DNA from: a virus
Lineage: Duplodnaviria > Heunggongvirae > Uroviricota > Caudoviricetes
Reading direction: 5' to 3' (one strand)
Virus record (IMG/VR): IMGVR_UViG_3300029721_000142
Length of the DNA stretch: 12,070 nucleotides
The notes under the pieces are model-generated. The model saw only the letters and a program-made list of their open reading frames with translations. It did not search any database and had not been told where the DNA came from. The translations under genes were made by a program, and so were the position numbers. This document shows positions 1-12,070 of this stretch, piece after piece (the first letter of the stretch is position 1; each line of letters begins with the position of its first letter).

Positions 1-1230
1 ATGAGCAGAGCACTTAACAAACTGAGCGATACACAGCTGAGGAAAATCAACGGCACACCCGCCCAAAAAACAGCCTTTCTTAATGACGGTGGAAACCTGA
101 GCGTCAGGCATTCAACCAGTGGCCTTTTAACCTGGTATTTCACTTACAGGGCCGGAACGGGAAGGGGGGCACCACCGGAACGCATTAAGCTGGGAAATTA
201 TCCTGATCTGAGCCTGAAATCAGCCAGGGAAAAAGCCGCCCAGTGTCGCGCATGGCTGGCAGAGGGGAAAAATCCACGTCATGAAATGAATTACACCGTA
301 CAGGAAGCGTTAAAGCCGGTAACGGTTGGCGATGCGCTCACCTACTGGCTTGAGTCGTACGCAAAGGAAAACCGCGTGGATTATGCCGCCCTGAAAAAGC
401 GCCTTAATAATCACGTAATACAGCACATTGGTGCTATGCCGCTGGATAAATGCGAGCTACGGCACTGGCTGGCCTGTTTTGACCAGGTGGCAAAGCGAAC
501 GCCTGTTACTGCCGGATTCTTGCTACAGACGTGCAAACAGGCGCTTAAGTTCTGCCGGAGGCGGCGCTATGCAATCAGCAACGTTCTTGATGATATGAGT
601 GTGGCGGACGTTGGGAAAAAACCGGATATAAGCGAGCGCGTCTTAAGCACCAAAGAACTTGGCGAATTATTGCAGGCACTGGACAAAAAAATATTTTCCC
701 CTTACTACGTCGCACTAATCCGCCTCCTGATTGTTTTCGGATGCCGGACGGTAGAACTGAGGTTATCGGAGATCAGCGAGTGGGATTTTACCGAAATGCT
801 CTGGACCGTGCCGAAAGAACACAGCAAAACGAAGGTGGCAATATTCCGGCCCATACCGGAAGCAATACTGCCGTTCGTCACGCAGCTGGTGGAGCAGAAC
901 AGGCACACGGGCTTATTGCTGGGGGAAGTGAAACAGGAAACAAGCGTGTCGCAGTACGGCAGATTAGCGCACAGGAGGCTAAAACACCCTCACTGGTCAC
1001 TGCATGACATCCGGCGCACCTTTACAACCATGCTGAACGATTTAGGCGTTGATCCGCATGTCGTGGAGCAGCTTACAGGTCATCAGATGCCAGGGATGCA
1101 ACGAGTCTATAACCATTCCCGTTATCTGGATGCGAAACGTGACGCGCTGGATATGTGGACGGAGCGGTTAGGGATACTGGCGGGAACACATGAAAACGTA
1201 ACCACATTGCCAATAGCCAGAGAAATATAA
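1..1230 (+). CDS. int: Tyrosine recombinase / integrase, P4-type
   Basis: 409-aa ORF. C-terminal catalytic region carries the tyrosine-recombinase signature (LHDIRRTF ... LTGHQMPGMQRVYNHSRY, i.e. His-x-x-Arg then the Tyr nucleophile region). N-terminal ~80 aa (LSVRHSTSGLLTWYFTYR) resemble the arm-binding domain of P4-family integrases. Position at the island edge fits. Family assignment from recalled signatures. Confidence 0.9.
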   Translation: MSRALNKLSDTQLRKINGTPAQKTAFLNDGGNLSVRHSTSGLLTWYFTYRAGTGRGAPPERIKLGNYPDLSLKSAREKAAQCRAWLAEGKNPRHEMNYTVQEALKPVTVGDALTYWLESYAKENRVDYAALKKRLNNHVIQHIGAMPLDKCELRHWLACFDQVAKRTPVTAGFLLQTCKQALKFCRRRRYAISNVLDDMSVADVGKKPDISERVLSTKELGELLQALDKKIFSPYYVALIRLLIVFGCRTVELRLSEISEWDFTEMLWTVPKEHSKTKVAIFRPIPEAILPFVTQLVEQNRHTGLLLGEVKQETSVSQYGRLAHRRLKHPHWSLHDIRRTFTTMLNDLGVDPHVVEQLTGHQMPGMQRVYNHSRYLDAKRDALDMWTERLGILAGTHENVTTLPIAREI

Positions 1231-1255: not shown

Positions 1256-1315
1256 GGACAACGTGAAACAACGAGACACAACGACGAACAACAAGGAACA
1301 AAATGGAACAACGGG
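1256..1315. repeat. Six tandem 10-bp repeats (ggacaacgtg / aaacaacgag / acacaacgac / gaacaacaag / gaacaaaatg / gaacaacggg; core RAACAAC) just downstream of int
   Basis: Seen directly: strict 10-bp periodicity over 60 bp, one helical turn per repeat, followed by an AT-rich stretch up to alpA. Candidate protein-binding array (integrase arm sites, AlpA or host factor sites). Confidence 0.6.
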
Positions 1316-1595
1316 TTAAAAATCAGCCATCGTAATAACCATTTGATTTTTATAGGTGTACTGTTTTTTTATACACTGGCGAATTACTCTTAAAAATATG
1401 TAAAAAAGGCGTAAAAGTAAAATTTTATGCCTTTGCATCATAATGAATTAAAAGAGTTTTTATTCTCATTCCCCCTGCTTCTGTAAAACGACCGCCGCCA
1501 GTGTTTGCCATTCCACAAACACCCTGACACAATCCGACACAACCCAACCCAATAATCCACCCAATGACTCTTTAAGAAACAACAAAGGGGGAATT

Positions 1596-1784
1596 GTGTT
1601 AAGCACAGATCGCTTTATACGTGAAAAAGAATGTCAGCAACTTACAGGCCTGAGCCGCTCATGTCGGTACCGCCTGGAAAAAGCCGGACAATTCCCATCA
1701 CGGCGTAAGCTGGGCGGTCGTTCCGTTGGCTGGTCTTTATCCGAAGTTCTGGCATGGAAGGACAGCTGCGAGGCAGTTCACTAA
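1596..1784 (+). CDS. alpA: AlpA-family phage transcriptional regulator (small HTH, excisionase-like)
   Basis: 62-aa ORF with GTG start at 1596 and RBS aaaggggga upstream. The sequence LTGLSRSCRYRLEKAGQFPSRRKLGGRSVGWSLSEVLAWK matches the AlpA family pattern (ITGLSRST.YRL...G.FP....LG.R.V.W...E...W). Position immediately after int is typical of P4-like elements and Gram-negative PICIs. Confidence 0.85.
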   Translation: MLSTDRFIREKECQQLTGLSRSCRYRLEKAGQFPSRRKLGGRSVGWSLSEVLAWKDSCEAVH

Positions 1785-1836
1785 TCAGGCTGGCGGCACA
1801 CAGCCGCCACCCATCCACTAATACAGAGATCTAACC

Positions 1837-2212
1837 ATGAATACTGGATATTCTCCCGAACAAGGGCGGGGCTTCGTTCGTCCTGAAAAACAGAATCTGC
1901 AAAATTTTGCCGAAATTATTCCGGTTATTTCCGGCCTTACTGGCGGGAGTGAAACCAATATTGCTAACGCCAGAGCGTTGCAGATGTTTGATGATAAAAA
2001 GGGAGTAAATTTAACTTACACCCCTGACGGCAATCAGAATATGAGCATTATCTCTGAGTCAGGTTTCTACAAACTAATAAAAACAAAAAGCGCCCCGTTG
2101 CCGGAGCGCCTTTGTGAACAATTAACCTACTGCGCAAAAAATGAATCTGAGCAGTGGGATTATATCAACCATGTGGAGAAGCGCCACAATTGCCGAATAA
2201 CGGGCAAAACAA
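1837..2212 (+). pseudogene. Protein-like 5' part of a 423-codon ORF (1837..3108); probable 3'-truncated gene remnant, possibly with a Bro-N/antirepressor-like fragment
   Basis: The first ~125 codons have normal protein composition (ISESGFYKLIKTKSAPLPERL is faintly Bro-N-like). From about 2212 to 2922 the same frame becomes Cys/Ser/Arg-rich nonsense while the opposite strand holds two well-formed small genes and a terminator. The frame reopens as a plausible small gene only at 2923. No in-frame stop exists before 3108. Confidence 0.3.
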
Positions 2213-2233
2213 AGGCCACCCGCTACGGTGGCC
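2201..2233 (-). terminator. Rho-independent terminator for the minus-strand two-gene operon
   Basis: Perfect 7-bp stem GGCCACC / GGTGGCC (2214-2220 and 2227-2233) with a 6-nt loop. On the minus strand it is followed by TTTGTTTTG. It lies about 80 nt downstream of the 62-aa gene stop. Confidence 0.5.
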
Positions 2234-2312
2234 CCTCGACACAAGCTACACGTTATCCCCAACGCATGAGCATTGCCAACAATGCCACATTTGCGGCTGG
2301 TGGGCAATGCAA

Positions 2313-2501
2313 TCAGTCTGGTTCAGTTCGTTGCCATACCTGCAATGAGCGCTTTTCCCTGTACTCTTTAAGGAATTGCTCAAGGGCAAAAGCACATGGC
2401 GCGAATCTTTCTGATTCATGCTCTATCTTTCTGCGCCGTCTTTTCCGTGCCGGTGATAATGTTTTGGTCAATTCTTTATCGGTCATTGTGTTGTCCTGCA
2501 T
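2313..2501 (-). CDS. Small basic protein (62 aa), downstream partner of the RHH gene; function unknown
   Basis: ORF in the same frame and operon as the RHH gene. Contains an arginine/lysine cluster (ARKRRRRK) followed by a predicted helical segment. An alternative start exists at the second Met (MTDKEL...). Confidence 0.45.
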   Translation of the reverse strand: MQDNTMTDKELTKTLSPARKRRRRKIEHESERFAPCAFALEQFLKEYREKRSLQVWQRTEPD

Positions 2502-2543
2502 AGCAATGCGCCGTAGTTCCTCACACCACGGCGCTGATGGTGA

Positions 2544-2723
2544 TTACTCTGGTTCTTTGGCCTTGCGCCGCTGGCGATATTCAACTTCTCGTTTTAATGC
2601 CGCAGTAACAAATTGCCCCGTACTTTCGCCAGGCATTTTTACCGCCTCAACATTGTTCATAACTTCATGCGGAACCCTTGCCGCAACGGTTTGTGATTTT
2701 GCGTTTACTGCTTTTGTCGCCAT
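2544..2723 (-). CDS. Ribbon-helix-helix (CopG/Arc/MetJ-like) DNA-binding protein, 59 aa; candidate repressor or antitoxin
   Basis: Hand-translated from the minus strand (below the ORF-track size cutoff): MATKAVNAKSQTVAARVPHEVMNNVEAVKMPGESTGQFVTAALKREVEYRQRRKAKEPE. Layout is beta strand (TVAARVP), helix A, loop, helix B, typical of RHH proteins. RBS GAGGGG sits 7 nt upstream of the ATG and an in-frame stop lies 5 codons upstream. It faces the operator cluster at 2773-2826. Confidence 0.65.
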   Translation of the reverse strand: MATKAVNAKSQTVAARVPHEVMNNVEAVKMPGESTGQFVTAALKREVEYRQRRKAKEPE

Positions 2724-2772
2724 GTGGTGTACCCCTCATAAAAAACAAATGCAGTATGCAGGAAAAAAAATA

Positions 2773-2826
2773 AGTGTTCAACACTTGACGTGTTTAACAC
2801 CTGGGTTTAAATTGGTGTTCAACACC
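2773..2826. promoter_or_regulatory. Operator cluster: three copies of the palindrome GTGTT(C/T)AACAC overlapping divergent promoters
   Basis: Seen directly: aGTGTTcAACACt (2773-2785), GTGTTtAACAC (2790-2800), gGTGTTcAACACc (2814-2826). A plus-strand promoter candidate is TTGACG (2785-2790), 17-nt spacer, TAAATT (2808-2813). A minus-strand promoter candidate is TTGAAC, 17-nt spacer, CATACT upstream of the RHH gene. Operators overlap the -35, spacer and +1 regions. Confidence 0.6.
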
Positions 2827-2922
2827 TTGTTGGCGCAAGGTGCAGAAACGACGAAACCCGGCAGTGCGCTAACACTAACCGGGCTTCTAACCACCAACGA
2901 TAGCGAAAGTATCGAGGTAGCT

Positions 2923-3108
2923 ATGAGAAATCATACCACACACCCGCAAGGGCGGGACTCGCACGACCTGAATAAATACATCTGGCGTTTTATCGCCCTG
3001 AGCACGGCACAACCGCGCGTGATTACCATCGAGGCCACCAGCGAACAGGAAGCGCGTCAGCAATCTCCTGATGGCTGCGTGATGGTATTCGCTGCCCGTA
3101 TTCGCTAG
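2923..3108 (+). CDS. Small protein (61 aa), tentatively Icd-like/Ash-region-like; first gene of the early operon
   Basis: ATG at 2923 with RBS GAGGT 5 nt upstream. Protein MRNHTTHPQGRDSHDLNKYIWRFIALSTAQPRVITIEATSEQEARQQSPDGCVMVFAARIR. The ATSE.EAR....FAAR motif resembles small Icd-like proteins found upstream of replication genes in P4-like prophages (from memory, unverified). Confidence 0.45.
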   Translation: MRNHTTHPQGRDSHDLNKYIWRFIALSTAQPRVITIEATSEQEARQQSPDGCVMVFAARIR

Positions 3109-8927: not shown

Positions 8928-8992
8928 CGGGTCCTTCCTGGAATTATGGCCCGTTACGGGGCGGCGACCTCGCGGGTTTTCGCTATTTATGA
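8928..8992 (+). other. cos-like element, left copy: cosQ-like flank + cosN (GGGCGGCGACCT, 8959-8970) + 22 bp of lambda-like left-end sequence; no R-site array
   Basis: Seen directly: cgggtccttcctggaattatggcccgttacg GGGCGGCGACCT cgcgggttttcgctatttatga. The 12-mer equals the phage lambda cohesive end, and the flanks resemble the lambda right end (ACGGGTCCTTTCCGG...GTTACG) and left end (CGCGGGTTTTCGCTATTTATGA), quoted from memory. It is an inverted duplicate (63/65) of 9676-9740. Confidence 0.75.
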
Positions 8993-9059
8993 CGTTTTTC
9001 CGTGAAGGTGACACCACCACCACTTGATTAATATTTAACCATGCAGTTAAGGTAACATT

Positions 9060-10609: not shown

Positions 10610-12070
10610 TTATTCATCTTTCGGCGCAGAATGCTGGCGACCAAAAATCACCTCCATCCGCGCACCGCCCAGCATGCTCTCTCCGGCGACGATTTTACCC
10701 TCATATTGCTCGGTGATTTCGCGGGCTACCGCCAGCCCTACACCTTGCCCAGGGCGTAAAGTATCAACCCGTTGACCACGGTCGAAAATGACCTCTCGCT
10801 TGCTTAATGGAATACCGGGGCCATCATCCTCGACCACAATATAGAGATGCTCGTCGGTTTGCCTTGCAGAAATTTCGACAAACTCGAGGCAATATTTACA
10901 GGCATTATCCAGCACGTTGCCCATCACCTCGACAAAATCGTTCTGCTCACCGACAAAGCTGATCTCTGGCGAAATATCGAGAGAGATATTGACCCCTTTG
11001 CGTTGATACACTTTGTTCAGCGCTGAGGTGAGATTGTCCAGCAGTGGGGCGACCGGATGCAGCTCGCGGCTGAGCAATGTCCCGCCGCGCATACTGGCAC
11101 GATGCAGGTAGTAGCCAATTTGCTGTGAAATGCGGCTGATTTGCTCCAGCATTACCGGCTCAGCATCACTGACGCTCATCTTTTCACTACGCAGAGAACG
11201 CAGCGTACTTTGCAGCACCGCCAGTGGCGTTTTCAGACTATGGGTCAGGTCGGTGAGCGTCGTACGGTATTTGTCGTAACGTTCGCGTTCACTTTTTAAC
11301 AATCGGTTCAGGTTTCGTACCAGACTGGTCAGTTCTCGCGTTGTGGCTGGATTGAGCAATTCGCGGTTATGTTCTTCCAGTTCGCGGACTTCTTTTGCCA
11401 GGGCTTCGATGGGGCGTAAACTCCACCAGGCGGCGACCCACAGCAGCGGGATCACTAACAGCAGATTGGCTGAGAGCACATAGATAAACCAGCTCCAGAC
11501 CATATAGGAACTTTTTAGCTCCACCGGAATGGTATCCACCACCACAATGGTTAATTTTGGCATCCGCGATGTTGCCGGGTAGACGTTTACTGCCACCGAG
11601 TGGGTCATCTCCGCGTCGTCATCATCTTCCCGCACTTCCTGCAACTGTTGCTGTATCGAATGATCTCCACTCAGCAAGAGGCTGGTATCGTTAACATCCG
11701 CTTCAATTTCATGAAAACCATTCGATTTCAGCCAGTCAGGCTGGATCATCTTCATCAGCCAGGGCACGTCACGTTGCGCCCATAAAAGCTGCCCGTTCTC
11801 ATCATAAATTAGCGTCATGGTGGGGCTTTGCTTGTCGATATTTTCGGGTAACTCGACATGCAACTTATTGTTTTCCCACTTCGCAAGGGTATAGAACAGA
11901 TTGCTCTCGCCACGTAACAGCCGAAACGTAGTTTTATCGAAACTGACGCTATAACCGATCAGCGCGACCATTCCGTAGGCAAGCGAAAGCACCAGTACTA
12001 CCGCTGCCGTTGCCAACAGAAAACGTACCCGCAGCGAGAGCGGGAAAAAAAGACGCAGTAATTTTTTCAT
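10610..12070 (-). CDS. phoQ: Sensor histidine kinase PhoQ (PhoP/PhoQ two-component system)
   Basis: 486-aa ORF spanning to the window edge. Two transmembrane segments flank a periplasmic sensor domain with the acidic patch EDDDDAE, followed by HAMP, the phosphoacceptor His box ([12 protein letters not shown]) and an ATPase domain with G boxes (DDGPGI, GQGVGL). Sequence matches E. coli PhoQ as I recall it. Confidence 0.97.

Follow-up and report, generated by a model that had tools for sequence, protein, structure and literature searches.

The junction between alpA and the following open reading frame, ORF3, of a phage-inducible chromosomal island (PICI) holds a GC-rich inverted repeat, and we asked whether this hairpin has a function and, if so, on which strand it would act. 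The DNA analysed is a stretch of 12,070 nucleotides recorded in IMG/VR as a virus (IMGVR_UViG_3300029721_000142), referred to here as the window. AlpA is the master switch of Gram-negative PICIs, and its excess leads to runaway island replication and cell death. Because of this role of AlpA and of the Icd-like division inhibitor encoded downstream, a conserved RNA structure at the alpA-ORF3 junction of a model island is a plausible tuner of how sharply the island is switched on; if the hairpin is inert, the current model of island induction stands unchanged. The hairpin has no match in Rfam and is described nowhere in the PICI literature that we searched.

The window is a complete EcCICFT073-type island

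The window is a complete PICI of the EcCICFT073 type, a kind of E. coli phage satellite, inserted between roxA and phoQ, the same site as that of EcCICFT073 in strain CFT073. It has the int-alpA left end, replication module, capsid gene, cos and specific att site of such an island (Table 1), and profile searches added DUF4222, a RepA-like AAA_25 helicase, SSB and capsid E to its gene content. In CFT073, a primase takes the place of this RepA-type helicase. Over positions 1400-2200, the window shows 100% identity to E. coli strain 266917_2, and this segment has a match in 1102 of the 5426 complete genomes of E. coli. The alpA stop region, the hairpin and the start of ORF3 are identical in sequence to those of EcCICFT073, whose AlpA is annotated as WP_000953274.1, the accession also found in the strain matching the window.

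The promoter-like site upstream of alpA, whose motifs TTTGCCA and CACAAT are conserved in related elements, is the likely source of the transcript carrying the hairpin. A perfect palindrome overlaps the -35 element of this site; one relative has it with one mismatch, and it is absent from the other relatives compared. Farther upstream, the short direct repeats clustered between int and alpA are candidate binding sites for AlpA or for the arm domain of the integrase.

ORF3 ends in an Icd-like cell-division-inhibitor domain (aa 381-423), and its first 16 codons are part of the conserved alpA module. Past the conserved GRGFVRP (GGGCGGGGCTTCGTTCG), at ~1885 and 16 codons from the start of ORF3, similarity to most related elements ends abruptly; at this point, the conserved alpA module and a mosaic Bro zone probably meet at a recombination boundary. 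ORF3 fits the layout reported for PICIs of Gram-negative hosts, an integration zone followed by a Bro zone (PMC10111431). Wholly inside ORF3, the opposite strand carries a YlcI/YnfO-family gene, and PGAP annotates pieces of ORF3 separately in related genomes; ORF3 may be a composite of a Bro-N part, a region of antisense genes and an Icd-like part rather than one simple gene.

Table 1. Coordinates of the hairpin and of the features discussed with it. Positions are those of the window unless another locus is named.
Feature	Position	Strand	Description
int	1-1230		left end of island
Short direct repeats	1268-1312		ACAACG / GAACAA (e.g. ACAACGAGACACAACGACGAACAACAAGGAACAAAATGGAACAA); int-alpA intergenic; conserved in relatives
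Perfect 7-bp palindrome	1501-1522		GTGTTTG-CCATTCCA-CAAACAC; overlaps alpA promoter -35 (TTGCCA, 1505-1510)
Promoter-like site upstream of alpA	1505-1533	+	TTGCCA-17-CACAAT with TG
alpA	1596-1784	+	62 aa; GTG start; TAA 1782-1784; PF05930 E=3e-18
Spacer, alpA stop to stem	1785-1790	+	6 nt
Hairpin	1791-1809	+	5′ arm TGGCGGC 1791-1797, loop ACACA 1798-1802, 3′ arm GCCGCCA 1803-1809
Spacer, stem to ORF3 ATG	1810-1836	+	27 nt; C-rich, G-poor; weak Shine-Dalgarno GAGA
ORF3	1837-3108	+	423 aa; P4 Eta-like composite; weak Bro-N match at N-terminus
Second minus-strand unit	2076-2167	-	extended -10 TGaTATAAT ending ~2159; ~40 nt past it, strong terminator of 12 pairs, 2113->2086, then TGTTTTTATT
Minus-strand module	2204-2310	-	terminator stem 2233->2214, then TTTGTTTTGC
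Minus-strand module, L113	1703-1791	-	conserved counterpart
Terminator, L113	1732->1713	-	GGCGGCC-CTGCAT-GGCCGCC then TTTGTTTTAT
Minus-strand module, L003	3145-3260	-	conserved counterpart
YlcI/YnfO-family gene	2544-2723	-	59 aa; NF041551 E=2e-16
Promoter-like site ahead of Icd-like ORF	2785-2813	+	TTGACG-17-TAAATT
SymR-like two-hairpin RNA	2850-2922	-	RF01809, 33 bits, E=0.0036, under gathering score
Short Icd-like ORF	2923-3108		NF033153 E=3e-19
Lambda-like cos	8953-9002		94% identical to lambda cos region
phoQ (host gene)	10610-12070	-	right end; 486 aa; NF008077 E=2e-288

Structure of the hairpin and chance expectation

Reading positions 1400-2200 confirmed the perfect 7-bp inverted repeat described at 1791-1809 in an earlier note on this sequence, and the profile match in Table 1 confirmed that the gene upstream is alpA; the distances of 7 nt from the alpA stop and 28 nt to the next ATG given there are right when counted to the first base of each feature. 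Six of the seven perfect pairs are G-C, the loop has 5 nt, and all thermodynamic folds predicted contain the hairpin. With short flanks, its predicted stability is approximately -17 kcal/mol as plus-strand RNA and -20 kcal/mol as minus-strand RNA, and the minus-strand folds of hairpin variants are in general slightly more stable than the plus-strand folds. The element has the GC-rich stem of at least 5 bp and the short loop of an intrinsic terminator, and a U-rich tract 0-2 nt past the stem is absent from both strands in the window: CCCAUCCACU follows the stem on the plus strand, and on the minus strand the tail is GCCUGAUUAG, with 3 U in 10. A terminator scan called 1791-1809 on neither strand, though it found the terminator at 2113->2086 nearby. 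The tails and the scan thus bear out, for both strands, the earlier view that this is not a canonical terminator.

Other structures at the junction were rejected. RNAalifold proposed a long-range helix between the 3′ end of alpA and ORF3 codons 3-6, and single folds showed a 5-bp helix, AUCCA/UGGAU, around the ORF3 start; the support for these amounts to one one-sided change, with a shift of register between subclades and breakage in recombinant haplotypes. A stimulator of stop-codon read-through or frameshifting was dismissed on the grounds that ORF3 lies in another frame, that no slippery site precedes the stop and that a 5-nt indel in the spacer breaks conservation of the frame.

Taken by itself, a perfect 7-bp hairpin can be explained by chance: we counted 13 of them (some nested) in the window against 4.8 ± 2.5 in first-order shuffles, 32% of the shuffles hold at least one hairpin equally or more GC-rich, and the heptamer TGGCGGC is present 6 times where 3.0 would be expected. 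Since the pattern is common by chance, its significance must rest on comparison with relatives, and it is the conservation of the stem in these that makes the hairpin more than chance.

The stem is conserved and the loop is free within the alpA clade of the window

We compared 76 loci coding for an AlpA at least 90% identical (from E. coli genomes, Shigella and IMG/VR) together with 25 metagenome contigs. Scanning genome contigs for further variants yielded only 3 loci, and the stem variants in the 25 metagenome loci were all already known. The hairpin is present once in every locus of the clade, always 6 nt from the alpA stop, and these 6 nt are themselves variable (TCAGGC, TCACGC, TCAGAC or AAAGAC). 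Single copies, always beside alpA, were found in 84 of 196 loci; no second copy exists in the window or in 49 kb of the CFT073 chromosome.

Among 36 haplotypes, diversity (pi) was 0.030 for the 14 stem sites, compared to 0.169 for the loop, 0.126 and 0.150 for the two spacers and 0.172 for third codon positions of alpA. The stem is thus approximately 6-fold less diverse than 160 neighbouring non-coding and third-codon sites (0.178). When 14 of the 160 sites were resampled, a mean as low as that of the stem was obtained with P = 0.0014, a value that treats sites as independent in a recombining, mosaic family. Deep differences that split the clade affect 29% of the 160 comparison sites and 0 of the 14 stem sites (P = 0.006). 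Among 76 non-coding flank blocks of 7+5+7 nt, the block at 1791 ranks second lowest in diversity, the lowest being the overlapping block that starts 1 base upstream. Diversity falls exactly at both arms and climbs in the intervening loop, which varies at 4 of its 5 positions and has five forms (ACACA, ACGCA, ACACC, GCACC and ATACA). Because stem diversity is low and deep splits are absent from it compared to its neighbours, the stem appears to be under purifying selection, which would fit selection on pairing and on sequence alike.

The few arm variants are informative about the strand. GTCGCCA (6 loci) and TGGCGGT (1 locus) arose independently, and in each the plus strand keeps a G.U pair where the minus strand has an A.C mismatch. 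The variant GCCACCA (3 loci) is a wobble on the minus strand only, leaving a strand signal of 2:1 for plus, and GCCGCCT or GCCGCCC (5 loci) lose the terminal pair. In one lineage, the loop changed from ACACA to ACACC to GCACC and gained an eighth pair, G1798-C1802. The spacer 1810-1836 is variable, with a 5-nt indel in the O157-type subclade. RNAalifold recovered the hairpin with no compensatory double substitution within its 7 pairs; the 6 consensus pairs show 0 double changes, 3 one-sided G.U changes, 1 break and 2 terminal mismatches. Covariation is absent because the clade is shallow.

Locus L056 and two sister loci make up the only subclade with a central mismatch in the plus-strand stem (GCCACCA). 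A new perfect 9-bp hairpin, CCGATACCG-GGATCT-CGGTATCGG, is inserted there approximately 15 nt downstream of the alpA hairpin (L056, ~1535-1560) and may compensate for its weakening.

The alpA transcript runs through the hairpin

The EcCICFT073 reporters pJP1288 and pJP1290 are both alpA-dependent, and induced lambda and phi80 lysogens switch on pJP1290 (Fillol-Salom et al. 2018). We mapped the primers of that study onto the window and found that these published reporters already bracket the hairpin. The insert of pJP1288 (1198-1784) stops at the alpA stop codon and lacks the hairpin, and that of pJP1290 (1198-2270) comprises the hairpin and 434 nt of ORF3, ending 460 nt beyond the hairpin. The promoter-like site of alpA lies within the published PalpA fragment (1198-1784), and the alpA promoter region alone is also AlpA-dependent in published reporters. 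Since pJP1290 is expressed and inducible, the alpA transcript carries the hairpin and runs past it, and any termination there is incomplete. RNA polymerase thus reads through the hairpin into ORF3, in a qualitative sense drawn from the published reporters. A plus-strand U-tract was found in none of the hairpin variants. AlpA-dependence does not need the hairpin, since pJP1288 is also AlpA-dependent.

These results bear on the proposal, made in the earlier note, that the hairpin modulates read-through from alpA into ORF3. A stem conserved throughout the clade with a free loop speaks for it, and modulation of expression across the alpA-ORF3 junction probably remains the best reading.

A possible stabilising and decoupling role on the plus strand

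Stable 3′-proximal hairpins block 3′-to-5′ exonucleases, with the result that the upstream cistron outlives the downstream one. Approximately 7 nt past the stop codon is also about where the mRNA exits a terminating ribosome, as judged from ribosome footprints. As our best explanation, held tentatively, we propose that the hairpin is a stem-loop in the plus-strand mRNA with two inferred roles, to stabilise the alpA cistron and to make it less tightly coupled to the toxic eta/Icd-like genes downstream. The hairpin would act as RNA in the untranslated spacer of the alpA-ORF3 co-transcript. With its first stem base 7 nt past the stop, approximately the closest distance allowing this, it could stay folded while ribosomes terminate, and would then be a barrier to 3′-to-5′ decay or become a processed 3′ end, in either case sparing the alpA cistron. 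Together with the 52-nt spacer and the weak Shine-Dalgarno sequence, it would uncouple translation of ORF3 from that of alpA. The predicted outcome is that AlpA, a positive autoregulator, is favoured over the toxic eta/Icd-like products encoded downstream.

Several findings favour this explanation: the low diversity of the stem, the conserved distance of 6 nt to the stop, the free loop, the added eighth pair, the wobbles that pair only on the plus strand, the presence of an inserted 9-bp hairpin downstream in the subclade with the central mismatch and the passage of the alpA transcript in pJP1290. Transcripts of the minus strand, moreover, would first meet two canonical terminators. Against it, the 7 pairs show no compensatory double substitution, the GCCACCA variant wobbles only on the minus strand, and the minus-strand folds are in general slightly more stable. 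The decoupling part is favoured by the sister clades, in which the next ORF lies 8-12 nt past alpA behind a strong Shine-Dalgarno sequence. The stabilising part is generic, as it fits any hairpin between two cistrons.

Minus-strand termination and the terminators of other alpA clades

The strongest competing explanation, which we consider unlikely, is that the hairpin acts on the minus strand as a fail-safe terminator or insulator, stopping leftward antisense transcripts from the region of ylcI/ynfO and of the antisense RNAs and thereby shielding alpA and int, with a weakened copy in the window. Minus-strand genes and RNAs do lie to the right of the hairpin, among them ylcI/ynfO. In 5 of 20 haplotypes, TAAAAAGAC replaces TAATCAGGC, which gives the minus strand the tail GUCUUUUUAG; in this type (L041; AAAGAC spacer variants), the terminator scan does call the hairpin as a minus-strand terminator. 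In the L056 type, changes in stem and flank produce a 12-pair minus-strand stem followed by UUUU, with a predicted fold of -16.6 kcal/mol on the minus strand versus -8.5 kcal/mol on the plus strand. However, the minus-strand tail in the window is poor in U and its site is not called, and the U-tract variants L053, L055 and L076 carry an A.C mismatch on the minus strand. Leftward transcripts would, in addition, meet two canonical terminators (2233->2204 and 2113->2086) before the hairpin, and no credible minus-strand promoter was found between 2086 and 1810.

A further argument for minus-strand termination was that a sister clade has a canonical minus-strand terminator directly beside alpA. In this larger clade, whose AlpA is ~60-67% identical (84 IMG/VR loci), the GC hairpin just past alpA is a canonical intrinsic terminator of the minus strand, as in L113 (Table 1), with a minus-strand YlcI/YnfO-family gene 75-700 nt to its right. 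Its arms covary (GGCGGCC/GGCCGCC, GGCGACC/GGTCGCC, GGCAGCT/AGCTGCC and AGCGGCC/GGCCGCT), even through changes from Gly-Arg to Ser-Cys in the overlapping plus-strand ORF, and 4 of its 4 non-Watson-Crick cells are G.U on the minus strand. Alignment ruled out that the hairpin at 1791-1809 is its homologue. The orthologue of this terminator in the clade of the window is at 2204-2233 (GGCAAAACAAAGGCCACC-CGCTAC-GGTGGCC), and in L003 at 3175->3155; the window clade has ~290 nt extra between alpA and the terminator module, taken up by the hairpin, the spacer and the first ~80 codons of ORF3. Since the look-alike terminator aligns to 2204-2233, the hairpin at 1791-1809 is a separate element specific to the clade of the window. 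In other alpA clades, the next ORF starts 8-12 nt past the alpA stop behind a strong Shine-Dalgarno sequence (GGGG or GGAG), with no hairpin, and the CP4-57 alpA of K-12 has no comparable hairpin at its stop.

The minus strand of ORF3 holds several further elements (Table 1). The module at 2204-2310 is conserved in L113 and L003. Approximately 50-60 nt upstream of its terminator is a conserved promoter-like site, TTGACC-17-TGgTATCCT in L113 with TTGCCC in the window, and the arrangement suggests an antisense RNA of ~50-60 nt encoded within the Eta-like gene, in its 5′ portion. In the window, the copy at 2204-2233 escaped the terminator scan, perhaps as a G.T extension of the stem consumes the T-run. 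The second minus-strand unit would produce an RNA of ~75 nt antisense to ORF3 codons 84-110; the 131-nt segment is found in 393 of 5426 E. coli genomes, often unannotated. Farther right, the SymR-like RNA is antisense to the 5′ leader and Shine-Dalgarno sequence (GAGG, 2915-2918) of the short Icd-like ORF and abuts the internal ATG at 2923. This layout looks like a type I toxin-antitoxin pair, as judged from the predicted features. Weak SymR matches also occur in L003, L082, L098 (44 bits), L113, L139 and L150.

Relic, protein-binding palindrome and induction checkpoint

It is rather unlikely, if only slightly more so than minus-strand termination, that the hairpin has no function now and is a chance or relic GC palindrome, persisting because of the recent origin of the alpA module and its spread as one block. 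The frequency of perfect 7-bp hairpins by chance, the lack of compensatory substitutions, the tolerance of single mismatches and the lack of the hairpin in other alpA clades would all fit such a relic. It does not readily account for neighbours that have diverged (29% deep splits) around a stem in which 0 of 14 sites did (P = 0.006, and P = 0.0014 for mean diversity), nor for a dip in diversity placed exactly at the arms with a rise in the loop.

A weaker possibility, which we regard as improbable, is that a dimeric protein binds the palindrome as DNA and thereby controls passage from alpA to ORF3; this protein could be AlpA or a factor of the helper phage or of the host. The element is a perfect dyad with arms spaced at a constant 5 bp, the sequence of the arms is nearly invariant beyond what pairing demands, and AlpA is a DNA-binding protein. 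Yet each element has a single copy, arm variants that break the symmetry persist in 15 loci, no promoter-like site on which a bound activator could act was found downstream of the hairpin, and AlpA-dependence is seen both with 1198-1784 and with the alpA promoter region alone, neither of which holds the hairpin. A lone extra half-site near the alpA promoter, GCCGCCA at 1494-1500, is missing from related elements, and for this reason an AlpA operator with its second half-site there, beside the alpA -35, was rejected.

We give very little credence to a last reading, in which the hairpin is a checkpoint of helper induction. A factor from the helper or the island, such as an antiterminator, RNA-binding protein or nuclease, would recognise it as RNA or DNA and gate transcription or translation on the way from alpA to the eta/Icd-like and replication genes; if true, the hairpin would belong to the pathway through which lambda and phi80 induce islands of the EcCICFT073 type.

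Comparison with known systems

The AlpA of Pseudomonas aeruginosa is an antiterminator with a target terminator, tB (PMC9371919, PMC7969949). Its likeness to the system described here is limited to the name and to the position of a hairpin behind a regulated promoter: the antiterminator is a far larger protein with a 21Q-like fold, whereas the island AlpA is a 62-aa PF05930 protein. The analogy was rejected, as the proteins are unrelated and AlpA-dependence here is seen without the hairpin.

Lambda-type nut sites combine a boxA with a boxB hairpin a few nt farther on, in which a stem of 5 bp carries a conserved GNRNA-like pentaloop. The hairpin shares with boxB a short stem, a pentaloop and a place in an early transcript, and the element is one that lambda and phi80 induce, but its loop is freely variable and not of the GNRNA type, its stem has 7-8 bp, and no boxA is adjacent. 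A nut site was rejected: the boxA-like GGTCTTTA at 1745-1752 is 39 nt upstream and is coding sequence of the conserved AlpA motif VGWSLSE, and the loop sequence changes within the clade. Immunity RNAs of the P1/P4 type (Rfam C4 and isrK) were not found at E<=10 in 1200-2400, at E<=1 in the whole window or at E<=0.1 in 14 related loci.

The vis-eta junction of satellite phage P4 has the same gene order, an AlpA/Vis homologue and then an Eta-like gene of the Bro network that has a Kil/Icd-like part at its end, and regulation at that junction decides the expression of the toxic downstream genes (PMC10111431). P4 and the sister clades are tightly coupled there, whereas alpA and ORF3 in the window are separated by a 52-nt spacer with the hairpin.

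Compared to intrinsic terminators, the hairpin has a similar GC-rich 7-bp stem and a loop in the 4-6-nt range, with a U-run on the minus strand in a few variants (L041, L056); it differs in that the window copy lacks a U-tract, is read through and is not orthologous to the sister-clade terminator.

The hairpin would work most like the stabiliser stem-loops found between cistrons, such as the REP hairpins between malE and malF. Unlike REP/BIME elements, which occur as many intergenic copies, it is present as a single, non-dispersed copy per element (one per locus in 84 of 196 loci, and one in the window and 49 kb of CFT073), and its 7-bp stem is short. Like the stabilisers, it is stable, GC-rich and without a U-tract, it stands behind the stop codon of the upstream gene, and the transcript continues past it. 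Differential stability or expression of the two cistrons would be the expected effect. The hairpin adds a new case to a familiar class of elements, in a model island that has been studied closely.
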